Shown here: one piece after another, positions 26,438 through 63,269 of the stretch
How the letters are laid out: each line of letters starts with the position of its first letter
Position numbering within the stretch: position 1 is the stretch's first letter
DNA from: Bdellovibrionales bacterium
Lineage (GTDB): Bacteria; Bdellovibrionota; Bdellovibrionia; Bdellovibrionales; JAUICD01
Direction: 5' to 3'
Assembly: GCA_965262715.1 (NCBI GenBank)
Contig: OZ253553.1
Coordinates: 2,272,001 to 2,336,000 of the forward strand
DNA: 64,000 nucleotides
Translations under genes and position numbers: made by a program
The notes under the pieces: generated by a model
What the model saw: the letters and a program-made list of their open reading frames with translations, nothing else
Told to the model about the DNA's origin: nothing
The model's database searches: none

Positions 26438-26611
26438 ATGAAAAATACAAAAAAAACACTACTAGGATATCTATTTGCTATGCTGTTTGTACTAGGAGCT
26501 ACACTAGTTGGTTGTGGCTCTGATGATTGTGATGATGGTCAAGTAAAAAATGATGCCGGCACTTGTGTTGCATGTGGAGGAGGAGGAACTCAACCTCAAT
26601 GTTCTAGTTAG
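26438..26611 (+). CDS. 57-aa Cys-rich small lipoprotein (absent from ORF track)
   Basis: AAGGAG ribosome binding site; MKNTKKTLLGYLFAMLFVLGATLVG|CGSDDCDDGQVKNDAGTCVACGGGGTQPQCSS*; hairpin downstream. Confidence 0.8.
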   Translation: MKNTKKTLLGYLFAMLFVLGATLVGCGSDDCDDGQVKNDAGTCVACGGGGTQPQCSS

Positions 26612-26777
26612 ATATTTATAAAATAATAACTCAAGGTGGGTGATTGCTTTTGAGCAAATTTATCCACCTTGAGTTATTTTAATATTTATCTAAACAAAGC
26701 CTGAAAAGAACTTCTGATAACTAATCTTTTGCAGCAATACTGATACTCAATTCGTCCCTGTGTATATGATGAGGGCT
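26545..26777. repeat. 233-bp direct repeat (left target duplication of IS1634 #1)
   Basis: Matches 28698-28930 with no mismatch seen; abuts the element terminus. Confidence 0.95.
26624..26680 (+). terminator. Hairpin terminator of the small lipoprotein gene; duplicated at 28777-28833
   Basis: AATAACTCAAGGTGG ... CCACCTTGAGTTATT stem followed by T-rich tract. Confidence 0.6.
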
Positions 26778-28697
26778 CCTGACTTCGACGGTTTAAACTT
26801 ATAAGTTACTGGGATCATTGGATGATACATTACATCATAGGCACTACAATTGATTTTTAGTTATGTATTAAGTGTATTTTTATTCAATAAGATAAGGTGT
26901 TGTAGAGTGCTTAAGTCCCATAATCTGATAGATTTTCAGAGCTTCCTTACTTATATTTGAAGGTATAGAGTACTTTCTGTTATTGGTTTGATCTACTAAT
27001 AAACTATGCTGTACATGGATTAAAGCATTTCGTATAACTTCCGGTGAACAGGATTGGTATTGTATCTTAATTCTGTAAGCTAAGTGTCTTATACAGACTA
27101 AACAGATAAAAGCAATGGCTATGTGGGCTTTGATTCGATCTGATGTCCAGTGAAATATAGGACGTATTTTTAAATCATGCTTAGCTATCCGGAATGTTTC
27201 TTCGACTTGCCATAACCCCTTATATTGGCTAATAATGTCTAAATCATCCATATCTTTGAGGTTTGTTATGACTCCAAACAAACCATCCCACTTTTGATCT
27301 TCTTTGACTCGATTTTCATTGACTGAAAGCTTTTGTTTCTTGCCTGTGACTTTTAAATACTTCTTATAACCGTAATTGTTTAATAAAGTCTTCACATCTT
27401 GAGCCTTTGAGAGTTTCTTAACTAAACTATCTATAGTTTGTTGACGATCATGTCGATCTTTCTCCGCTCTCTTATAAGAATAACAAACTATCACTTTCCT
27501 CTTATTATCTTTATCTTCTAATGATTGAATCTTGAAACCTTCTTGTTTACTGACAATTTTGTACTTTGACTTATCTAATACAAGCTCTTGTTTTACTTTT
27601 GGTAATTTCTTAAGCTTAGCTCCTACAATATAATGAAGATTCTCATCTTCTAGTGCTTTTAAATTATCTTCACTTAACATTCCTCTATCAGCGACATAAA
27701 TAGCTTGTTCTAAGTTATATTTAGACTTCATCTCTTTTATCACTGGATTTAAGGTATGACCCTCGAAGATAGCACCCGGGAAAGTCTCGTAACTGACAGG
27801 AAAACCTTCTTTGGTCACAACGACTGCTAAACACACTTGAGATTCTTTAAACTTAGCATCTTTACTGTAACCTCTTTGTCTTAAATCATCTTCAATAATT
27901 GATTCAAAATACAGTGTCGTACAATCAAAAAACAAAACTTTCAAAGGCTCTTTAAAAACCTTTTGTGCCACTTGACCTGCCAGTCTCTTTATCTTATCTA
28001 TCCTTTTGCTATCTAAACGATCCATCATGCGATAAATCTTCTCTAACGAAATATGAACTCCAAAATCCTCTTCTAAAAATCGACTGCTCTCTCTTTTACT
28101 TTGAGGATTAGCTATCCGAGCCATCACTGTATGAAATAAAACCCAATGTGATGAATGATAACGACTCACTGGTAAAATGCGATCTAAACCTAATTCCTTG
28201 TACATAGCTCCATAAACCTCATGAATACCTACAATGACTCTTTGATCTTCCCTTAGTTTCTTAAGATCTACTTTTAAGGGTTTATTGCAATGACGAAACT
28301 TGGACTCAATCACTTGTTTAGAAATCTCTTCCGGAGCAAAAAAAGATAATTGATTTTCATTTGTTAGTTTAGCTTTGATGAATTCTCCAAGCTCTTGAAG
28401 ACGAAATAGCTCATCCTCATCTTGAGCCACTCCGACATGACGGATGATCTTTTGGCGAACTTTATTGCCATAACGGATAGAATCAACGATCTGAACTGAC
28501 TGCCTTGGACTGTTTGGTGTGCTTTTGATTCTTACAAACATAAAAATAATTTAATGCTTATTAAAAAAAAAGTCAAAATAAAAATAAAAATAATCTGACA
28601 TGGTGTGTTACTAGGCACTACATCGAAAACTTACTCCAAAATCCTATAACCATCAATGTTACAAAACCAATACCGAACATAAACCGTCGAAGTCAGG
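26778..28697 (-). mobile_element. IS1634-family insertion sequence #1 (1,920 bp)
   Basis: Perfect 18-bp terminal inverted repeats CCTGACTTCGACGGTTTA / TAAACCGTCGAAGTCAGG; single transposase; long flanking direct repeats. Confidence 0.93.
26880..28541 (-). CDS. IS1634-family DDE transposase
   Basis: FFDCTTLYFE, GYSKD, VADRGM, WQVEETFR..K..L.IRPIFHW. Confidence 0.93.
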   Translation of the reverse strand: MFVRIKSTPNSPRQSVQIVDSIRYGNKVRQKIIRHVGVAQDEDELFRLQELGEFIKAKLTNENQLSFFAPEEISKQVIESKFRHCNKPLKVDLKKLREDQRVIVGIHEVYGAMYKELGLDRILPVSRYHSSHWVLFHTVMARIANPQSKRESSRFLEEDFGVHISLEKIYRMMDRLDSKRIDKIKRLAGQVAQKVFKEPLKVLFFDCTTLYFESIIEDDLRQRGYSKDAKFKESQVCLAVVVTKEGFPVSYETFPGAIFEGHTLNPVIKEMKSKYNLEQAIYVADRGMLSEDNLKALEDENLHYIVGAKLKKLPKVKQELVLDKSKYKIVSKQEGFKIQSLEDKDNKRKVIVCYSYKRAEKDRHDRQQTIDSLVKKLSKAQDVKTLLNNYGYKKYLKVTGKKQKLSVNENRVKEDQKWDGLFGVITNLKDMDDLDIISQYKGLWQVEETFRIAKHDLKIRPIFHWTSDRIKAHIAIAFICLVCIRHLAYRIKIQYQSCSPEVIRNALIHVQHSLLVDQTNNRKYSIPSNISKEALKIYQIMGLKHSTTPYLIE

Positions 28698-28930
28698 AAA
28701 AAATGATGCCGGCACTTGTGTTGCATGTGGAGGAGGAGGAACTCAACCTCAATGTTCTAGTTAGATATTTATAAAATAATAACTCAAGGTGGGTGATTGC
28801 TTTTGAGCAAATTTATCCACCTTGAGTTATTTTAATATTTATCTAAACAAAGCCTGAAAAGAACTTCTGATAACTAATCTTTTGCAGCAATACTGATACT
28901 CAATTCGTCCCTGTGTATATGATGAGGGCT
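28698..28930. repeat. 233-bp direct repeat (right target duplication of IS1634 #1)
   Basis: Matches 26545-26777. Confidence 0.95.
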
Positions 28931-41389: not shown

Positions 41390-41962
41390 ATGAGTGTGAA
41401 ATGGACAAAAGAGCAAATAAAAAGGGTAGCTAAAGGTGTTTTTAGTGATTTAAAAGCTAATAATATTGTCACTTTTAAGGCTCCAGAAGACTCAGTGATG
41501 ACAAAGGTTGTTAGTTATGTTATAGCAGATCAAAATAAGGATAAAGAGATAGACAAAGAGGCGCGAAGAATGGTAGAAGACCTAGAAAGCAAGGCCTCGG
41601 ACACCATTGATAGGCATAAGTTATTTCAGTTGGTGAAGAAAAAGCTTATGGCTGAGAAAAACAGACCTGACAGTTGGAAATCAAAGGGTGGAGTTATTGA
41701 AGAGCTACCCATACATTTTGCTCATCTTATAATTGATGCTGTTTGGAAAGATGATTTGGTAGATTATACTGATGATAATCGGGCTTTGAAGGTAGCAAAG
41801 CAATCAGTTGCAAAGTTTTTAAATGAAGTAGAAGTTTTAAATGAGCAGGTGAGACATAAAATACAATCAATTAAAAGAACCATCCCCGAAGGAAGTGATG
41901 AGTGGAAGGCTTTATATGATAGATTTTACAAAGAGGAATTACGCCGTCGAGGATTTTTATAG
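41390..41962 (+). CDS. DUF507-family protein with two tandem domains
   Basis: KLFQLVKKKL and KIQS.KR.IPEGSDEW..LY.R.Y.EEL halves; ATG 41390. Confidence 0.75.
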   Translation: MSVKWTKEQIKRVAKGVFSDLKANNIVTFKAPEDSVMTKVVSYVIADQNKDKEIDKEARRMVEDLESKASDTIDRHKLFQLVKKKLMAEKNRPDSWKSKGGVIEELPIHFAHLIIDAVWKDDLVDYTDDNRALKVAKQSVAKFLNEVEVLNEQVRHKIQSIKRTIPEGSDEWKALYDRFYKEELRRRGFL

Positions 41963-42626
41963 AGTTGAGTTAGGTTAAGAATTTTCCTTAACATGGTGTT
42001 AGCTGATAAGAAGAGTCTTGCTACTCAAAGTAAACGGATTTTTGAGACAGCCAGCATTTTTTTGACGGTGTTAACCGTCAGGTTGGCTGTCCAAAAACAG
42101 CTAGGAGCTGGTTTATTTTGAGTGAGACAGAGAGTGGAAGGCTTTATATGATAGATTTTACAAAGAGGAATTACGCCGTCGAGGATTTTTATAGAGTTGA
42201 GTTAGGTTAAGAATTTTCCTTAACATGGTGTTAGCTGATAAGAAGAGTCTTGCTACTCAAAGTAAACGGATTTTTGAGACAGCCAGCATTTTTTTGACGG
42301 TGTTAACCGTCAGGTTGGCTGTCCAAAAACAGCTAGGAGCTGGTTTATTTTGAGTGAGACAGAGAGTGGAAGGCTTTATATGATAGATTTTACAAAGAGG
42401 AATTACGCCGTCGAGGATTTTTATAGAGTTGAGTTAGGTTAAGAATTTTCCTTAACATGGTGTTAGCTGATAAGAAGAGTCTTGCTACTCAAAGTAAACG
42501 GATTTTTGAGACAGCCAGCATTTTTTTGACGGTGTTAACCGTCAGGTTGGCTGTCCAAAAACAGCTAGGAGCTGGTTTATTTTGAGTGAGACAGAGAAAT
42601 GGCTTAACACATGAGGAGGGGGTAAT

Positions 42627-42767
42627 ATGATTGAATTTTTAAAAGTTTTTGCAAAGGATGTTTTTTGTGCGATTTTCGAAAAACGTCCTGAAGATGAAAT
42701 TCGTGAGAATATAAAAGACATTATTCACGAAGTGCTAGACGAGAGAGAAGATAGTGATTTTGATTAA
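42627..42767 (+). CDS. 46-aa acidic small protein inside the array insert
   Basis: GAGGAGG ribosome binding site; MIEFLKVFAKDVFCAIFEKRPEDEIRENIKDIIHEVLDEREDSDFD*. Confidence 0.55.
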   Translation: MIEFLKVFAKDVFCAIFEKRPEDEIRENIKDIIHEVLDEREDSDFD

Positions 42768-42912
42768 ACTTATTTTTCTTTGTTTATCAATTGCGATAAT
42801 TATTGTATTTTTTCCTATCGCGATTTTAATTTCATTAGTAAATTTCTTGAGGTGGAAGGCTTTATATGATAGATTTTACAAAGAGGAATTACGCCGTCGA
42901 GGATTTTTATAG
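42754..42912 (+). CDS. 52-aa hydrophobic peptide fused in frame to duplicated DUF507 C-terminus
   Basis: GTG start; MILIKLIFLCLSIAIIIVFFPIAILISLVNFLR-WKALYDRFYKEELRRRGFL*. Confidence 0.4.
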   Translation: MILIKLIFLCLSIAIIIVFFPIAILISLVNFLRWKALYDRFYKEELRRRGFL

Positions 42913-43126
42913 AGTTGAGTTAGGTTAAGAGTTTTCCTTAACATGGTGTTAGCTGATAAGAAGAGTCTTGCTACTCAAAGTAAACGGATTTTTGAGACAG
43001 CCAGCATTTTTTTGACGGTGTTAACCGTCAGGTTGGCTGTCCAAAAACAGCTAGGAGCTGGTTTATTTTGAGTGAGACAATGGATTGTTTTTTAGAAAAA
43101 CAATGGAAAAAATCTTTGGAGGCAAT

Positions 43127-54286: not shown

Positions 54287-54586
54287 CTAAGAATAGTTAT
54301 AAATTTCTGTGAATGGATCTGAAACTTCTTCACCTTCTGAATAAATAGTTTCAGGATCGATGTCTATACAATCTGACTCAGAAAAGCATCCACTGCTATC
54401 CCATGCAAGGGTTCCTCCCATAACTGTGCATTTATTCATAAATTCATCGATTTGAGAGATTTTTTGAAATATTCCACCATTACTGATTAAAGGATTTACA
54501 TCATATAACTTAATTTTTCCATCATCAAAGTAAACATAGACTTTAAAGTCCTCTCTCGGCTTAACTTGAACGACTGTTTTTAGCAT
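54287..54586 (-). CDS. DUF2442-family protein, putative antitoxin-like partner
   Basis: V.P..DF...VYFDDG.IK.YD, GTLAW, DIDPETIY. Confidence 0.8.
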   Translation of the reverse strand: MLKTVVQVKPREDFKVYVYFDDGKIKLYDVNPLISNGGIFQKISQIDEFMNKCTVMGGTLAWDSSGCFSESDCIDIDPETIYSEGEEVSDPFTEIYNYS

Positions 54587-54598
54587 ATTAAGACCTTT

Positions 54599-54859
54599 TT
54601 ACTTTAGGGGATCAATTTTCTTAATCATACCATTTTTCTGAGCTGATTTCCAATTTTGAATAAGTTCTTGTTTATGTATTTCACACCAAGCCAGTACTAA
54701 TTTAAGTTGTTTTGTGGGGAGCAGTCCTTTTATAACAGCGGCTTGTTCGATAGATATAATAGCCTTAGCACTTTTATGCTCAGCATGAAAGTGCATTGGC
54801 AGATGATCTGCCCAGTGCATATATATTTTGATTCCAAAGAATTGACTTATAAGCGGCAT
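54599..54859 (-). CDS. DUF4160-family protein, putative toxin-like partner
   Basis: MP.IS.FFGI.IYM...DH.P.HFHA, W.EIH..EL..NW, KIDPLK; start reassigned to ATG 54859. Confidence 0.85.
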   Translation of the reverse strand: MPLISQFFGIKIYMHWADHLPMHFHAEHKSAKAIISIEQAAVIKGLLPTKQLKLVLAWCEIHKQELIQNWKSAQKNGMIKKIDPLK

Positions 54860-54922
54860 AATTAAGCTCATTTTATATGGTTCATTATAATCTTTATTAT
54901 TTGTAAATTTAACATAAAAAAG

Positions 54923-54969
54923 GGACTTGTTGCACAAATACTTAATGGCCAATGAGTATATTAAGCTTA
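54923..54969. mobile_element. Solo end of IS903-group-like MITE family
   Basis: 54926-54960 is the exact reverse complement of 32267-32301. Confidence 0.75.
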
Positions 54970-54978
54970 GATGGAGAT

Positions 54979-57900
54979 TTAAACAGAGCGGCGATATGCA
55001 CCGCCGACTTCATACAAGGCTTTAGACATTTGCCCTAAGGAACAATATCTAGAAGCTTGCATAAGTGCCTCAAAAATATTTTTTCCAGATAAAATATGTT
55101 CCTTTAAATATACTAGTTCTTTTTTAGCTTGTTTTTGATGTTTTTGTTGATAAAGCTCAAGATGTTTTAATTGTTTATCTTTTTCTTGTTTGCTTGATCT
55201 TGAAAGACCTTCTTCATTGATATCAGGGACATCATCTTCTTCAGAAATATAAGTGTTTACACCTATAATAGGTAGCTTGCCTGAATGTTTTAAATGCTCA
55301 TAATGAAGAGATTCATCTTGAATTTTTCCTCTTTGGTAGCCATGTTCTATAGCTGGTAAGACACCGCCTCTTTCGCTAATGCGAATAAACTCGCTTAATA
55401 TAGCCTCTTCTACTAAATCTGTGAGCTGTTCTAGCCAGTAACTACCTTGAGTAGAGTTTTCGCATTTTGTCATTCCAAACTCACGATTGATAATCATCTG
55501 AATGGCCATAGCTCTTCTTACAGACTCTTTAGTGGGTGTTGTAATGGCTTCATCATAAGAATTGGTATGTAGGCTGTTGCAGTTATCGTAAATAGCAATC
55601 AGGGCTTGTAGAGTCGTTCTTATATCGTTAAAACTCATCTCTTCACTATGTAGAGAACGTCCACTGGTTTGAATATGGTATTTGAGCTTTTGGCTGCGAC
55701 TACTGCCTCCATAAAGATATCTGATGGTAATAGCCCAGATGCGTCTGGCAACGCGCCCAATAACAGCATACTCAGGGTCTAAGCCATTAGAGAAGAAAAG
55801 GGAAAGATGAGGGGCAAATTGGTCAATTTGCATGCCTCTTGATAAATAATATTCTACATAGGTAAAGGCATTTGCTAAAGTAAATGCTGTTTGAGTAATC
55901 GGGTTAGCACCAGCCTCAGCAATATGATACCCAGAAATACTGACAGAATAAAAGTGACGCACTTTATTTAAAATAAAGTATTCTTGAATATCTCCCATCA
56001 TTTTCAGTGCAAAATCTGTTGAAAAAATACAAGTATTTTGGGCTTGTTCTTCTTTCAAAATATCTGCTTGAACTGTTCCACGGACAGAAGAGAAAGTTTT
56101 AGCTTTGATATCTTCAATTTCTTTTTTTGTTAAATTTCGTTTTAATTCTTTTTCTCTTTTTTCAAGTTGTTGATCGATAGCTGTGTTCATAAAAAAAGCT
56201 AAAATAATAGGAGCAGGTCCATTAATAGTCATGCTCACGCTTGTAGAAGGATCACAAAGATCAAAGCCAGAATAGAGAGTTTTCATATTGTCTAATGTGC
56301 ATATACTCACGCCGCATTCTCCTATACGGCTATAAATATCAGGTCTCAAATCAGGGTCTTCTCCGTAAAGAGTCACGCTATCAAAAGCTGTGGAAAGCCT
56401 TTTGGCTTTTGTGTTTTTACAAAGATAGTGAAATCTCTTATTTGTTTTTTCAGGAGTTCCTTCACCTGAAAACTGTCTTTGAGGGTCTTCATCTTGACGT
56501 TTTAGAGTCCATATTCCTGCTGTGTAAGGGAACTCTCCTGGCACATTTTCAAGTTTTAAGAACTTGAGTTTTTCTGACATATCTTTAAAACGAGGAAAGA
56601 CCACGCGTCTGATCATTGTTCCACTTAAAGAGGGTTGCTTCAATGAATAAGATTTGGTTTTACCCATAACAGAATAAGGAATGTTATCCTGTTGATAGGT
56701 TTTTTGTTTATCATTCCATGATTTTAATAACTGATAGTCATCATCTAATTTTTCTATAAGGTCTTTTATTTTAGGTTCTATTTCTGTTTTAAGATGGGGG
56801 AGAAGTTTTAGAGTTTCTTCTAAAGCTCCTAGTTGGTAAGCTAAATCTGCTTTTTGCTGTACTTCTTCTTTATACTTGCGGACAGTTTGGGCTACTTGTG
56901 TTAAATAAGCCTTTTTTTCTGTAGGTATAATTTGTTGATGCTTTGAGTGAGAGGAAATGTTTTTGGAACATGGTATATTTATTTTTTTTAAGAGGGCAAA
57001 AAATAATTTATTCATTCCTTCGTCGTTAAAACAAGAGGCTTGTGTTAAAAAAACAGGTAAGTTGCTGTCTTCTTCTTGAAAAAGCTTTCTAGAACGCTTA
57101 TATTGCTTTCTTACATCTCTTAGTGCATCTTTAGAGCCTTGGCGGTCAGCTTTGTTGATAGCAATGAAATCTGCAAAGTCAATCATGTCAATCTTTTCAA
57201 GCTGTGAGCTTGCTCCAAACTCAGAGGTCATTACATAAAGACTGAGATCAGAAACTTCTGTGATGGCCATATTGCCTTGTCCAATTCCAGATGTTTCTAC
57301 AATGAGCAAGTCAAAACCTTGATTTTTCATTTGGTTGACAATGAGCCTTAAATTATCAGAGATTTCTTTGCCTGAATTGCGAGAAGCTAAAGATCTCATA
57401 AAAAAGTGGGGATAAGAAAGAGCATTCATTCTAATGCGATCTCCTAAGAGGGCTCCGCCAGTTTTCTTTTTAGTAGGATCTACACAAATAATGCCTACTT
57501 TAATATTGTCGATATTTCTTGCCATACGGAAGAGTAATTCATCAACAAGGGAAGATTTCCCAGCCCCACCTGTTCCTGTTACTCCTAATACAAGAGGACA
57601 TTTTTTATAAGTAGCATAAGGTAAATGAGGTAATTTAAGTGCTTCTGTATTTTTATTCTCAAGTTCACTTATTTTAAGCCCTAGATCTCTGTCAGCTAGA
57701 AGAATTGTGTCTGCTAATTTTGTGTCTTGGGATTTGCTTTTTTGATAGGCAGTGCATACATCAAAGTCAGACGCTTTTACAATTTCTTGGATCATGCCTT
57801 CTAGTCCAAGGCGTTTTCCATCTTCTGGTCGAAAGATGCGAGAGATGCCATAAGCTTCTAACTCTTTTTTCTCGTTAGGTGTGATGAGGCCTCCACCTCC

Positions 57901-58173
57901 GCCAAATATTTTGACGTAGGTAGCTCCATTTTGATCTAAGAGATCTCTGGTATATTTGAAATAGGCGATATGACCACCCTGATAATTACTTATACATATT
58001 GTTTGTGCTGCTTCTTGCAAAGCTGTGCGCACTACATCTTTTACAGAGCGGTTATGTCCTAGATGAATGACTTCACATCCTGCATCTTGCAACATTCTTC
58101 TGATGATGTTGATGCTCACATCATGTCCATCAAATAAACTTGCAGCAGTGACAATACGTATAGGATTTTTCAT
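54979..58173 (-). CDS. icmF: Fused isobutyryl-CoA mutase / MeaB-like GTPase IcmF
   Basis: N-terminal B12-binding FDGHD, GTGGAGKSS GTPase domain, mutase domain RLSTAFD and GYHIAEAG. Confidence 0.93.
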   Translation of the reverse strand: MKNPIRIVTAASLFDGHDVSINIIRRMLQDAGCEVIHLGHNRSVKDVVRTALQEAAQTICISNYQGGHIAYFKYTRDLLDQNGATYVKIFGGGGGLITPNEKKELEAYGISRIFRPEDGKRLGLEGMIQEIVKASDFDVCTAYQKSKSQDTKLADTILLADRDLGLKISELENKNTEALKLPHLPYATYKKCPLVLGVTGTGGAGKSSLVDELLFRMARNIDNIKVGIICVDPTKKKTGGALLGDRIRMNALSYPHFFMRSLASRNSGKEISDNLRLIVNQMKNQGFDLLIVETSGIGQGNMAITEVSDLSLYVMTSEFGASSQLEKIDMIDFADFIAINKADRQGSKDALRDVRKQYKRSRKLFQEEDSNLPVFLTQASCFNDEGMNKLFFALLKKINIPCSKNISSHSKHQQIIPTEKKAYLTQVAQTVRKYKEEVQQKADLAYQLGALEETLKLLPHLKTEIEPKIKDLIEKLDDDYQLLKSWNDKQKTYQQDNIPYSVMGKTKSYSLKQPSLSGTMIRRVVFPRFKDMSEKLKFLKLENVPGEFPYTAGIWTLKRQDEDPQRQFSGEGTPEKTNKRFHYLCKNTKAKRLSTAFDSVTLYGEDPDLRPDIYSRIGECGVSICTLDNMKTLYSGFDLCDPSTSVSMTINGPAPIILAFFMNTAIDQQLEKREKELKRNLTKKEIEDIKAKTFSSVRGTVQADILKEEQAQNTCIFSTDFALKMMGDIQEYFILNKVRHFYSVSISGYHIAEAGANPITQTAFTLANAFTYVEYYLSRGMQIDQFAPHLSLFFSNGLDPEYAVIGRVARRIWAITIRYLYGGSSRSQKLKYHIQTSGRSLHSEEMSFNDIRTTLQALIAIYDNCNSLHTNSYDEAITTPTKESVRRAMAIQMIINREFGMTKCENSTQGSYWLEQLTDLVEEAILSEFIRISERGGVLPAIEHGYQRGKIQDESLHYEHLKHSGKLPIIGVNTYISEEDDVPDINEEGLSRSSKQEKDKQLKHLELYQQKHQKQAKKELVYLKEHILSGKNIFEALMQASRYCSLGQMSKALYEVGGAYRRSV

Positions 58174-58448
58174 AGTTTATATCAGATATTTCTTTAAATA
58201 TCTGAGCCTTTGTGGGGTTGTGTTGTTATGGTTATATGTCATATAAAAAACATAAGTCATTATAGCATGTGAAAAATAGTATTTCAATTTCAGTTCAGGT
58301 TATATATACTGTGTAAATTTTTCAAAAACATGTAATAATTTCTCAACTATTTTATATTTAAGTTTATGGCAGGAATATCAGTAGATATTTTTTCAAATCT
58401 ATGTTAGTTAGTTAAAGGCTTGATTAACTATAGGAAGGAGATTTAATT

Positions 58449-59126
58449 ATGAATTTATTTAAGCATTTATTTATTCTATCCATATTATGTTTGATCACAA
58501 GCACTTTCAGTATATCGGCTTTAGCTCAGATGTCTCAGGACGAGTTAAACAGGTTCTTTCTTAATGCAAGCCGCTCTGGTGATGTAGAAAGTGTCAGAGC
58601 AGCACTTGAAGGAGGAGCAGATGTAAATGTGGCTGATGAAGAAAATGGCTGCACAGCTTTAATGTATGCGACTAGTCTTCATGAGGAATGGCGTGAAGAT
58701 AGTAGTGGTCGTAGGGCTGACAGTCCCTTCATATGTTCTCGAGGTCAGTATAATCATGAGGTATTGGAGCTATTGTTTGATAAGGGATTTGACTTAAATA
58801 AATTAAGCCAACACAGAATAGCTGAGTTTTTACTTAAAGCAAGCGAAGTTGGAGATGTACAGAATGTTGTAAAAGCACTTGAAGCAGAAGCAGATGTAAA
58901 TGGAGGTGGTCGCTACCCACCTTTACTTCTAGCAAGTGAAAATGGGCATGAAGATATCGTAAGAACATTAATTATAGCTGGAGCTGATATAAATCAAATA
59001 GTGAACAGCATAGATGGGCAAAAAACAGCTTTAAATATTGCAATAGAGAGAGGTCATGAAGGTGTTGAACGTGTATTGCGTGATGCAGGAGCTCTTACTG
59101 TAGAGTTTATGGCGATGAAAAGATGA
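58449..59126 (+). CDS. Secreted ankyrin-repeat protein, copy 1
   Basis: Signal peptide ending ALA; GADVN, TALMYA, PPLLLASENGH, TALNIA. Confidence 0.9.
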   Translation: MNLFKHLFILSILCLITSTFSISALAQMSQDELNRFFLNASRSGDVESVRAALEGGADVNVADEENGCTALMYATSLHEEWREDSSGRRADSPFICSRGQYNHEVLELLFDKGFDLNKLSQHRIAEFLLKASEVGDVQNVVKALEAEADVNGGGRYPPLLLASENGHEDIVRTLIIAGADINQIVNSIDGQKTALNIAIERGHEGVERVLRDAGALTVEFMAMKR

Positions 59127-59128
59127 AA

Positions 59129-59182
59129 AGGTTCAACAATAAGTTAACTCCTCTAAAAGTCAACTTAAGGTGTCATGAACCT
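59129..59182 (-). mobile_element. Minimal IS1595 left-end derivative; duplicated at 62307-62360
   Basis: 59135-59181 reverse complement matches 47143-47189 with about 5 mismatches. Confidence 0.75.
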
Positions 59183-59313
59183 ATATTATAAACCAAAGGT
59201 TATTAGTTCAATCTCTTTATTTTCAAGTTAGTAATTAAAAACACCTTTTGAAGTTTTTCTGCCGAGAAAACCAGCTTCAACATATTTAGTTAGAAGAGGA
59301 CTTGGTCTGTATT

Positions 59314-61309
59314 CCTGACTTCAGCGTTTTTGTTTAAAGAGGAAGTTTTTTTCAAGTTTTTTCATTAAATTTCGTTATTGAGAGCGGGTTTATTTTGATT
59401 TGAGGCTGAAACAGCTATTTATTTTTATTTTGTGTGGCCCTAAGCCCTTGACAGATTTTGAGAGTTACTTCATAGTTATTTTATGTATATCAAAGAGACT
59501 AAAAAAGCCAATGGTAAGATATCCATACGGATCATGAAGTCTATCCGTAGAGGTGAGAAAGTGACTCATCATACAGTAAGTAGTCTTGGTTGCTGTTTTG
59601 AGAATCAATTGGATTTTTATAAAAAGAATGCAAAGACCTTATTAGATCGTTTAGAAAAAGAAGAAGCAGAAAAAATGTCAATACTTCTTCCAGGAATGAA
59701 AGAATATTGTGACAGCATAGAACCGGTTTCTAAACAACCAAGGTCAAGAAAAAAGAGTGTTAAAGTTAAAAAGAAAGCATCTTCTCATTTTAAAATCATA
59801 CTTTCATCAGAAGCAAAAGAGCGATGTCGAGTGATTAGTGGCATACAGAGTGTTTTTGGAACAATATATAATCAATTAGATTTTAATAATCTTATAAAAG
59901 GTAAGAGTCAAAAAACGAAGCAATATAATGAGTTATTAAAGCTGTGTGTTTTATCTCGGATAGCTCAACCAGAGTCTAAGCGAAAGACAGTAGATACATT
60001 AGGATTAGATTATAACAAAGAGATTTCTTTAGATCAGGTTTATCGGATGATGGATAAACTTCATACTCGTATACCTGAATTAAAAAAGCAAATTTCAGAT
60101 CATACATTAAGTCTTTTCAATCAAGAGGTGGATGTTTTATTTTTTGATGTAACGACATTATACTTTGAAAGTTTGACAAAAGATGATCTGAAGGACTTTG
60201 GATTTAGTAAAGATTGTAAGTTCAAAGAAGTTCAAGTGGTTTTAGCTTTAATAACAAATTCAGAAGGTCATCCATTAATTTATCAGTTATTTCCTGGAAA
60301 TACGAGTGAAGGCAGCACTCTTATTCATGTGATTCAAGATTTAAAGAAACACTTTAGTGTTAAGAGAGTTATCTTAGTAGCGGATCGAGCTATGTTTACA
60401 GATAAGAATTTAAGTTTTATGGAGAAAGAGAATATCCAATATATAGTTTCAGCCAAGCTCAAGCAATTTTCAAGAGATAAGAAAGCAGAGATTTTATCAG
60501 CTTCTAAGAAAGGTGAAGATGTCAGTATATTCAATGAATCACAAAGAATGAAAGAGTTAGATCATAATGGTCGCAGATTATTAGTGAGTTATTCTATCAT
60601 GAGAGCTAAGAAGGATAAAGCAGATAGAGATAGACTCATTGATCGATTAATGAAGAAAGCAATAGATGATAAGATTTCCACTAAGTCTCTTATTTCTAAT
60701 TATGGAACTAAGAAGTACATAAAGATAGAAGATAGCAAAGCGACTATCAATAGGAATAAGATTAAAGAGGATTCTCACTGGGATGGTCTCTACGGAGTTA
60801 TAACTAATATTAAAGATCAAAGTATGCAGAGTTTATTTACTCGCTATAGAGGCCTCTGGAAGATAGAAGAGGCATTTAGAGTGAATAAACATACATTGAG
60901 AATGAGACCGATATATCATTGGAAGAAAAGAAGGATAGAGTCTCATATAGCGATATGTTTTTTAGCCTATGCTTTATCGTATCATATCAAGCACAGACTT
61001 AAGACAAAAAATATTAATTTAAGTATTCAAAAGATTAAAGAGATCTTAAAGAGGGATCAGTATTCAATTATAGAAGACCCAAAGACTCATCAATTATATC
61101 AATTAGCATCTTCATCAACAAAAACTTTAGAAGCTATATACAAGATTTTTGAGCTTAAAAGAAAGACAGGACTTACAAAAATAACAGAAAACCCGCAAAC
61201 CCTTAATACATAAGCCTTTTAAGTAACCTCGATGTCAAATGTGTGGCCCCAAGAAAATCGTAAGTGCTTGATTATAAAGAACTTTGCCTTTCAAAATGCT
61301 GAAGTCAGG
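59314..61309 (+). mobile_element. IS1634-family insertion sequence #2 (1,996 bp)
   Basis: 16/17-bp terminal inverted repeats CCTGACTTCAGCGTTTT / AAAATGCTGAAGTCAGG; single transposase. Confidence 0.93.
59483..61213 (+). CDS. IS1634-family DDE transposase
   Basis: FFDVTTLYFE, GFSKD, VADRAM, WKIEEAFR..K..L.MRPIYHW. Confidence 0.93.
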   Translation: MYIKETKKANGKISIRIMKSIRRGEKVTHHTVSSLGCCFENQLDFYKKNAKTLLDRLEKEEAEKMSILLPGMKEYCDSIEPVSKQPRSRKKSVKVKKKASSHFKIILSSEAKERCRVISGIQSVFGTIYNQLDFNNLIKGKSQKTKQYNELLKLCVLSRIAQPESKRKTVDTLGLDYNKEISLDQVYRMMDKLHTRIPELKKQISDHTLSLFNQEVDVLFFDVTTLYFESLTKDDLKDFGFSKDCKFKEVQVVLALITNSEGHPLIYQLFPGNTSEGSTLIHVIQDLKKHFSVKRVILVADRAMFTDKNLSFMEKENIQYIVSAKLKQFSRDKKAEILSASKKGEDVSIFNESQRMKELDHNGRRLLVSYSIMRAKKDKADRDRLIDRLMKKAIDDKISTKSLISNYGTKKYIKIEDSKATINRNKIKEDSHWDGLYGVITNIKDQSMQSLFTRYRGLWKIEEAFRVNKHTLRMRPIYHWKKRRIESHIAICFLAYALSYHIKHRLKTKNINLSIQKIKEILKRDQYSIIEDPKTHQLYQLASSSTKTLEAIYKIFELKRKTGLTKITENPQTLNT

Positions 61310-62491
61310 AAATAAACTTGCAGCAGTGACAATACGTATAGGATTTTTCATAGTTTATATCAGATATTTCTTTAAATATCTGAGCCTTTGTGGGGTTGTG
61401 TTGTTATGGTTATATGTCATATAAAAAACATAAGTCATTATAGCATGTGAAAAATAGTATTTCAATTTCAGTTCAGGTTATATATACTGTGTAAATTTTT
61501 CAAAAACATGTAATAATTTCTCAACTATTTTATATTTAAGTTTATGGCAGGAATATCAGTAGATATTTTTTCAAATCTATGTTAGTTAGTTAAAGGCTTG
61601 ATTAACTATAGGAAGGAGATTTAATTATGAATTTATTTAAGCATTTATTTATTCTATCCATATTATGTTTGATCACAAGCACTTTCAGTATATCGGCTTT
61701 AGCTCAGATGTCTCAGGACGAGTTAAACAGGTTCTTTCTTAATGCAAGCCGCTCTGGTGATGTAGAAAGTGTCAGAGCAGCACTTGAAGGAGGAGCAGAT
61801 GTAAATGTGGCTGATGAAGAAAATGGCTGCACAGCTTTAATGTATGCGACTAGTCTTCATGAGGAATGGCGTGAAGATAGTAGTGGTCGTAGGGCTGACA
61901 GTCCCTTCATATGTTCTCGAGGTCAGTATAATCATGAGGTATTGGAGCTATTGTTTGATAAGGGATTTGACTTAAATAAATTAAGCCAACACAGAATAGC
62001 TGAGTTTTTACTTAAAGCAAGCGAAGTTGGAGATGTACAGAATGTTGTAAAAGCACTTGAAGCAGAAGCAGATGTAAATGGAGGTGGTCGCTACCCACCT
62101 TTACTTCTAGCAAGTGAAAATGGGCATGAAGATATCGTAAGAACATTAATTATAGCTGGAGCTGATATAAATCAAATAGTGAACAGCATAGATGGGCAAA
62201 AAACAGCTTTAAATATTGCAATAGAGAGAGGTCATGAAGGTGTTGAACGTGTATTGCGTGATGCAGGAGCTCTTACTGTAGAGTTTATGGCGATGAAAAG
62301 ATGAAAAGGTTCAACAATAAGTTAACTCCTCTAAAAGTCAACTTAAGGTGTCATGAACCTATATTATAAACCAAAGGTTATTAGTTCAATCTCTTTATTT
62401 TCAAGTTAGTAATTAAAAACACCTTTTGAAGTTTTTCTGCCGAGAAAACCAGCTTCAACATATTTAGTTAGAAGAGGACTTGGTCTGTATT
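61310..62491. repeat. 1,182-bp direct repeat (right flank of IS1634 #2)
   Basis: Matches 58132-59313. Confidence 0.95.
61627..62304 (+). CDS. Secreted ankyrin-repeat protein, copy 2
   Basis: Identical translation to 58449-59126. Confidence 0.9.
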   Translation: MNLFKHLFILSILCLITSTFSISALAQMSQDELNRFFLNASRSGDVESVRAALEGGADVNVADEENGCTALMYATSLHEEWREDSSGRRADSPFICSRGQYNHEVLELLFDKGFDLNKLSQHRIAEFLLKASEVGDVQNVVKALEAEADVNGGGRYPPLLLASENGHEDIVRTLIIAGADINQIVNSIDGQKTALNIAIERGHEGVERVLRDAGALTVEFMAMKR

Positions 62492-63269
62492 TAGAATCTC
62501 CAATATCTTCATGTAAGACTTTCATAATGGCTAAACATACATCAAGCCCAATAAAGTCAGCAAGCTCTAAGGGTCCCATAGGTTGATTTGTTCCTAGCTT
62601 CATAGCTGTATCAATATCTTTTGCAGAGGCGATACCTTCATCTAAAGCAAAAAAAGCTTCGTTAATCATGGGCATTAAAATACGATTGACGATAAAGCCG
62701 GGAGTGTCTTTTAAAGAAGCTACAAAAACCTTCTGCATTTTTTCAGCTAATTTTTTAGCTTGTAAAAAAGTGTCATCTGAAGTTTGTAGTCCTCTGATGC
62801 CTTCTACCAAACGCATAACAGGAACAGGGTTCATAAAATGTAAGCCCACTACTTTGTCTGGGCGTTTTGTAGCTGCTGCTAAGCGGGTTATTGAAATAGA
62901 AGATGTATTAGAACATAAGATCACATCTGAGGAAGTTATTTTATCTAATTGAGTGAAAAGTTGAGTTTTTGCATTAACATCTTCTATGATAGCTTCTATG
63001 ATTATTTGGCATTGGTCTATTTTGGTTGTGTTATTAGATAATACTAACCATGTGATGCGATTTGTAATTTGATTTTTCTGATCTTTTGTGATTTTTTGTT
63101 TTTCAATCATTCTTGTTAATTGTTTGTCTATTTTGAGTTTAGCTTTCTTTAAAGCTTCTAAAGAGGCATCAAAACAAATCACAGGTAGGCCACTTGTTGC
63201 TGCCATCTGAGTTATACCTTGACCCATTTGACCAGCACCAATAATTCCAATAGATTGAACGTCTTCCAA
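62406..63269 (-). CDS. hbd: 3-hydroxybutyryl-CoA dehydrogenase
   Basis: GAGQMG, SNTSSISIT, GLHFMNP, PGFIVNR, PMGPLELADFIGLD; GGAGG + TTG start. Confidence 0.93.
   Translation of the reverse strand: MEDVQSIGIIGAGQMGQGITQMAATSGLPVICFDASLEALKKAKLKIDKQLTRMIEKQKITKDQKNQITNRITWLVLSNNTTKIDQCQIIIEAIIEDVNAKTQLFTQLDKITSSDVILCSNTSSISITRLAAATKRPDKVVGLHFMNPVPVMRLVEGIRGLQTSDDTFLQAKKLAEKMQKVFVASLKDTPGFIVNRILMPMINEAFFALDEGIASAKDIDTAMKLGTNQPMGPLELADFIGLDVCLAIMKVLHEDIGDSKYRPSPLLTKYVEAGFLGRKTSKGVFNY

Follow-up and report, generated by a model that had tools for sequence, protein, structure and literature searches.

How does an insertion sequence (IS) come to lie between two identical direct repeats of more than a kilobase, each of which carries a whole gene? 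The question is raised by a locus in contig OZ253553.1 of a Bdellovibrionales bacterium, which we analysed as a window of 64,000 nt on the forward strand; locus coordinates are positions in this window, and the host genome, a single 2.94-Mb contig, is labelled G000. Here a 1,996-bp IS1634-family element stands between two copies of a 1,182-bp repeat. An earlier note, made from the sequence alone, had taken the repeat for a kilobase-scale target duplication and the element for a gene-duplicating, non-disruptive transposon. We consider it likely that the repeat is a true target-site duplication, which arose when an IS1634-family element inserted once, with two uncoupled strand transfers, and the host copied the gap between them. 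The behaviour is a known trait of IS1634 and IS1549 at a larger scale, about three times the published maximum that we found, and not a new kind of transposon.

The match between the two repeat copies is exact and ends abruptly, extending no further to the left or right; its probability by chance is about 1e-659. The element lies flush between them at the coordinates that the note had claimed (Table 1), and its terminal inverted repeats differ at one of 17 positions and are identical over the first 12. Each repeat copy contains the start of icmF (42 nt), the intergenic region, an open reading frame (ORF) for a 225-aa ankyrin-repeat protein and the end of hbd (86 nt), contents that the ORF and family matches bear out. 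As had also been proposed, icmF on the left and hbd on the right are intact; both remain open frames when the element and one repeat copy are removed in silico.

Repeat lengths and boundaries across copies and genomes

A transposase search of G000 returned 40 places at E 1e-8 or better, comprising 35 two-ended copies of five related types (the long group), two copies of a distant subgroup F and three truncated copies. Long flush repeats were present at 33 of the 35 two-ended copies, at unrelated sites and with lengths of 38-1,666 bp, five of them above 1 kb (1,182, 1,340, 1,593, 1,663 and 1,666). Twenty-seven of the 33 are exact, two match at 97.6-99.8% and one, of 739 bp, at 96.5%. One 327-bp repeat is interrupted by another IS, and the remaining two belong to a nested pair (G000:C1:2903764-2907847), a copy within a copy of itself, where a 244-bp duplication of IS sequence lies inside the 345-bp outer one. 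The two other copies comprise one in a minisatellite, where a repeat is unresolvable, and one without a repeat. The latter (G000:C1:1336000-1346500) is part of an array of diverged paralogous units of ~2 kb each, where an exact 327-bp segment occurs again 2,000 bp upstream, and this array was likely reshaped by recombination.

With four further copies above 1 kb and short duplications at none, this tabulation supports the kilobase-scale target duplication and does not favour unequal recombination between independent insertions, the alternative raised in the earlier note. The focal element has one identical copy elsewhere in G000, with a 164-bp duplication; given 1,182 and 164 bp around identical elements, repeat length varies from event to event. 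Identical copies at separate sites with exact repeats suggest, from their sequence, recent transposition activity.

We extended the survey to other genomes, where flanks of 1.4-6 kb were searched for flush repeats. In fetched regions of five relatives, 26 of 40 two-ended elements had a flush repeat of their own (31-1,406 bp), and two others share a 302-bp repeat as a composite. This pair (L053 5019-14682, G077) consists of a miniature element of 155 bp and, about 7.6 kb away, a full IS, which the repeat bounds together; it is a composite transposon of ~9.7 kb that retained the long duplication. From 77 further loci, we excluded 15 for insufficient length and 20 because their genome had already been counted; among the 42 left, 23 had a flush repeat (41-1,701 bp) and three had no end pair. 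Pooling gave 82 repeats (33 from G000 and 49 from ten other genomes, hence 11 assemblies) of 31-1,701 bp with a median of 258; eight are at or above 1 kb and none is below 31 bp. Among finished public records, long repeats were found in Persicobacter (33 and 406 bp), Aliarcobacter (680 bp) and Mycoplasmopsis (108 bp, at one of two copies), while repeats were of 5 bp in Acidiphilium and 4 bp in Sphingobium, and the Mesorhizobium and Pseudonocardia copies had none.

Short duplications characterise other elements of the same host. Subgroup F (G000:C1:709902-711591 and 1048319-1050008; L073), whose transposase has the motif Y-F-D-K-D before the catalytic glutamate, shows 7-bp duplications bounded by T...A at both of its two copies. 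Across 52 loci of the subgroup F clade and others, most of which gave no end pair under the strict rule, 6-7-bp duplications were seen at five and long ones at none. Three other IS families in G000 have duplications of 2-9 bp or none that could be detected. As long repeats are absent from subgroup F and from other ISs of the same host, the trait goes with the element and not with the host. The Acidiphilium type and subgroup F share the family, the DDE core and the C-rich ends of the focal element, and subgroup F its host as well, but they make duplications of 4-7 bp, in contrast to tens to more than 1,000 bp in the long group.

The repeats begin with A and end with T, a rule that holds at 143 of 156 ends pooled. 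In G000 the first duplicated base, read from the outside in, is A at 54 of 58 ends (p 1e-21), alike at the two element ends (26/29 and 28/29), with weaker preferences for T at +3 (31/58) and A at +5 (34/58). The same base was found at 47 of 52 ends in the five relatives, where both ends had A in 21 of 26 elements, and at 42 of 46 ends of the further loci. Since the rule applies at both ends, both junctions were likely made by the transposase. T occurred at 17, 31, 23, 7, 18, 18, 21, 18, 19, 14 and 20 of the 58 G000 ends for positions +2 to +12, and among these ends there was neither a mirror T nor another strong mirror base at the distance of a short duplication, which argues that no short palindromic duplication is hidden at either junction. 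Sixty-six tandem duplications free of an IS were listed as possible scars of lost elements, and no A...T rule was evident in them by eye.

These data also bear on whether the 1,182-bp repeat could be a consensus error around a repeated element, an explanation to which we give almost no credence. The genome does come from a metagenome assembly, and no one contig piece spans the locus. However, in two sequencing runs from a single sample, which is probably the source of the assembly and so no independent evidence, unitigs end exactly at 58132 and 62491, and the left and right junctions each have a unitig of their own at depth 8-9.4, with 28-30 letters per side, slightly below the 31-letter bridging rule of the tool. 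Read depth is 14-18 over the repeat, like that of the two-copy IS, and 4.5-10 in the unique flanks, so that breaks and depth fit a true two-copy segment with both junctions. Eleven assemblies show the same pattern, as do finished public plasmid records (33, 108, 406 and 680 bp), and an artefact would neither follow the A...T rule nor leave out the 7-bp subgroup.

Family membership and known systems

The transposase scores above the cut-off of the IS1634 family model NF033559 (Table 1). The table in PMC2266710 gives a single ORF, a length of 1,500-2,000 bp and the end signature C-----YT for this family; the 1,996-bp element has one ORF, and on both sides C at position 1 and T at 7 and 8. D222, D301 and E462 do not vary across 70 aligned sequences and probably form a DDE triad with a long spacer before E, a catalytic role assigned here from the alignment. 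In place of YREK the protein has Y455-x2-L458-W459-x2-E462-x6-K469, with L at the position of R; an incomplete YREK that lacks R fits the IS1634 family. The IS4 family proper is excluded by the missing R and by a score of 40.8 bits against NF033592 (cut-off 115). Within the IS1634 family, flush direct repeats that vary from copy to copy place the element with the long-variable-repeat type (IS1634/IS1549), and the 5-6-bp AT-rich duplication of the short-repeat majority was found at none of the 35 long-group copies.

A structure model of the transposase (pLDDT 80.6) had the Tn5 transposase as its top fold match (Foldseek E 7.5e-9, TM 0.36-0.44, 11% identity), in keeping with an RNase H-type fold, and no extra domain stood out that could account for long duplications. 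Tn5/IS50, of the IS4 family, has fixed 8-9-bp repeats and a full YREK according to the table in PMC2266710, whereas the focal element has long variable repeats and L at the R position. Every long-repeat transposase aligned has a W three residues before the catalytic E, which those of subgroup F and the Acidiphilium clade lack. This appears to be a correlation between W and long repeats, as seen in an alignment that samples only two short-duplication clades. Deep forks in a tree of 18 proteins are unresolved, and hence we make no claim of a single long-repeat clade.

The long variable duplications of IS1634 and IS1549, to which the earlier note had pointed, are documented: the relevant part of PMC2266710 gives repeats of 8-514 bp and states that, as of 2008, no mechanistic model had been proposed. 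The focal element resembles IS1634/IS1549 in family model, size class, end signature and the long variable repeats themselves. It differs in scale, with 1,182 bp at the focal locus, 1,666 bp in G000 and 1,701 bp in a relative, and 22 of the 82 pooled repeats above the 514-bp maximum given in that part of the source; it differs also in the copying of whole genes at five of 29 simple sites in G000 and in an A...T boundary rule that has been measured. Inserts flanked by long variable repeats are described, in the sections consulted, for restriction-modification insertions with long target duplication (PMC2853133), for IS481 (PMC11708052) and for retroviruses (PMC5041404). Each of those systems either has no transposase, is a single event or shows damage at the second end, whereas here the repeats are the routine product of an intact element. 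The consulted sections of PMC3971601, PMC11004492, PMC3053259, PMC3365025, PMC2853133, PMC13343696 and one preprint held no length data on the long-repeat group. Kilobase IS1634 duplications, whole-gene copying and the A...T rule were unreported in the literature searched, which was of incomplete coverage, excluded supplements and may have missed recent surveys of long-duplication ISs.

Mechanism of the long duplications

In the mechanism that we favour, the transposase would join the element ends to opposite target strands, tens to ~1,700 bases apart. The two strand transfers would be uncoupled, such that each end chooses its own half-site and cuts 5' of an A, weakly preferring A-N-T/A-W-A. 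The interval between the nicks, paired until then, would be opened, and the host would copy it by synthesis starting at the two free 3' ends of the target; alternatively, a passing replication fork could duplicate it. Long repeats of this kind would allow clean loss of the element by homologous recombination. Contigs of four runs contained no end-to-end joint such as an excised circle of the element would have; such contigs cannot prove its absence. Duplications are in strong excess over repeat-less copies in G000. Pooled repeat lengths fit a log-normal distribution (Kolmogorov-Smirnov p 0.98) and show no helical phasing at 10-11 bp (p 0.69), which counts against a fixed looped synapse.

Could the repeats have arisen in two steps? 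An insertion with a short duplication might be followed by unequal sister-chromosome crossing-over between nearby copies, or by a second attack of one end on neighbouring DNA to give an adjacent duplication. Both junctions would then still be made by the transposase, in keeping with the A rule, which applies to both ends; another genome has one flank swap between copies, and 13-kb IS1634-flanked tandem repeats in Mycoplasma mycoides PG1 were read as IS-promoted and unstable in the part of PMC1798306 consulted. We nevertheless regard this course of events as unlikely. Precursors with short duplications are absent among the 35 G000 copies, and no 3-19-bp duplication was found among 36 elements tested elsewhere. 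A mirror base, the mark expected of a full short target site, is absent at +5 to +12. Deletions would be expected as often as duplications, yet at most two of the 35 copies in G000 are without a repeat.

An event in which the transposase joins one end and host repair the other, or in which the element enters a break while the host itself makes the duplication, is strongly disfavoured, and we think it very unlikely. Aberrant one-ended integrations of retroviruses do duplicate host DNA over hundreds to thousands of bp (PMC5041404, in part), and in Pseudomonas fluorescens a copy of IS481 appeared at a 60-kb duplication junction and disappeared together with the duplication (PMC11708052, in part). 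However, the second retroviral end is often truncated, whereas here both inverted repeats are whole and flush. The A rule at both element ends and the lack of long repeats at other IS types of the same host argue further against such an origin.

Several observations weigh against uncoupled strand transfer in a single insertion. All evidence comes from standing genomes, with no fresh insertion observed. No flush repeat was found at 12 of the 40 elements in the five relatives, nor within ~3.8 kb at 16 of the 42 further loci; some repeat-less elements may be deletions, which are not expected from a strictly polar mechanism, and swapped flanks account for only one pair among those elsewhere. The single-copy empty site that the earlier note had looked to related genomes for did not emerge: a search of 20 relatives found none from the same species, and a same-genus genome has only icmF and hbd, at separate places. 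Relative to local GC skew, the insertions are neither asymmetric nor biased in orientation (16/29), and the gene effects reported below depend on crude gene calls.

A more specific version ties the insertion to replication. The ends would attack across two fork arms or a repair intermediate, one end close to the fork and the other up to one Okazaki-fragment length behind, and 30-1,700 bp would be copied per jump, with a ceiling near 1.7 kb and W as the protein determinant; jointly, these claims are possible but in our view doubtful. Their attraction is that the transposase of an IS1634-family element from Acidiphilium binds the sliding clamp through a C-terminal Q-L-x-L-F (PMC4549789, in the portion consulted) and that lengths stop near 1.7 kb. 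Here, only a partial Q-L-Y-Q-L was seen by eye near the C-terminus, and it is not kept in relatives. A hard ceiling at 1.7 kb is not significant (no length above 1,701, p 0.08), and the five lengths within 1,500-1,750 bp (p 0.003) fall in a range picked after looking. Cuts ahead of and behind the fork showed no difference in motif after 120 tests at 22 sites, seven others having been dropped for weak skew. With no clear clamp motif, orientation bias or fork asymmetry, and a ceiling that is not significant, the link to the fork is not established. If true, it would make this widespread IS1634 subgroup a routine, reversible, gene-duplicating and gene-sparing transposon that W separates from its 5-7-bp sisters.

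Together, the 33 events in G000, the 49 in relatives and a short-duplication sister in the same host make the question of mechanism testable. Handles on it are that both ends are marked by sequence, that lengths are unphased and roughly log-normal, and that a candidate residue separates long from short clades.

Effects on genes and neighbouring features

Gene effects were evaluated with a simple ORF model at the 29 simple sites in G000. An ORF was broken, the element lying wholly inside it, at six sites, compared with 14.9 expected if duplications of these lengths were placed at random and 22.7 if the duplication were of 5 bp. Short-duplication elements of G000 broke an ORF at 13 of 25 sites, a different fraction (p 0.023), whereas cut ends fell within ORFs at the same rate in both (30/58 and 13/25). 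Equal cutting with less breakage means that selection alone does not explain the sparing of genes. Breaking a gene requires both cuts to lie within it, and long duplications therefore tend to leave genes intact and now and then duplicate one entirely; the five sites with at least one whole ORF copied hold six such ORFs, two of them ankyrin-like. Gene-sparing is thus a tendency and gene duplication an occasional outcome. The label 'gene-duplicating, non-disruptive' stands for its first part and for reduced breakage, but six of the 29 copies still break an ORF.

No targeting of promoters was seen: nine of 29 duplications include the point 40 bp ahead of a start (8.1 expected at random), and with approximate sigma-70 weights and crude gene calls the 58 cuts had no -10-like peak nearby. 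An apparent enrichment on the terminator side (13 against 8.1, p 0.019) was rejected, since it disappeared (p 0.29) once disruption status was taken into account.

That a DDE element can duplicate entire genes together with the DNA upstream of them, while its rate of gene breakage is halved, bears on the growth of gene families in IS-rich genomes. It is also relevant to annotation tools that seek only 2-14-bp duplications, and to the reading of IS-centred tandem duplications, which are usually ascribed to recombination.

Table 1. Features of the focal locus and a second element of the same group (window positions)
Feature	Position	Strand	Remarks
Left copy of 1,182-bp target duplication (probable)	58132..59313	.	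exact match to 61310-62491; first base A, last T
Right copy of 1,182-bp target duplication (probable)	61310..62491	.	exact match to left copy
IS1634-family insertion sequence, 1,996 bp	59314..61309	+	flush between both repeats
Left terminal inverted repeat, 17 bp	59314..59330	+	one mismatch to right one
Right terminal inverted repeat	61293..61309	-	
DDE transposase, 576 aa	59483..61213	+	NF033559 347.5 bits, cut-off 100
Ankyrin-repeat gene, copy 1, 225 aa	58449..59126	+	Pfam Ank_2 E 6e-21
Ankyrin-repeat gene, copy 2	61627..62304	+	identical to copy 1
icmF, intact	54979..58173	-	NCBIfam IcmF 1656 bits, cut-off 1500; first 42 nt in left repeat
hbd (3-hydroxybutyryl-CoA dehydrogenase-like), intact	62406..63269	-	last 86 nt in right repeat
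Orphan copy of last 86 nt of hbd	59228..59313	-	follows from gene coordinates and repeat
Orphan copy of predicted icmF promoter and first 42 nt of icmF	61310..61465	-	consensus match only
Second element of the same group	26778-28697	-	exact 233-bp flush duplication; whole 26545..28930

The ankyrin protein is likely exported, judged by eye from its hydrophobic N-terminus. In same-family genomes hbd and icmF are adjacent, sometimes with an enoyl-CoA hydratase gene between them, and a DNA query did not find the ankyrin gene between the two there. The gene, which occupies the 58174-59227 interval on the opposite strand, looks like a lineage-specific insertion that predates the IS. Directly 3' of it lies a 47-nt dispersed repeat (59135-59181 and 62313-62359), which recurs at many further places in G000 and relatives.

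The predicted icmF promoter in the right repeat (61437-61465, minus strand) matches the consensus at 11 of 12 positions with an extended -10. It is directed into the right IS end, antisense to the transposase, and is followed by a 38-aa read-through frame; this orphan copy could dampen transposase expression. Right after icmF, a DUF2442 gene with a small ORF upstream (54287-54952) is likely a pair of the toxin-antitoxin type. Further away, 232-bp tandem units at 41900-43083, three exact and one displaced, adjoin another type of IS.

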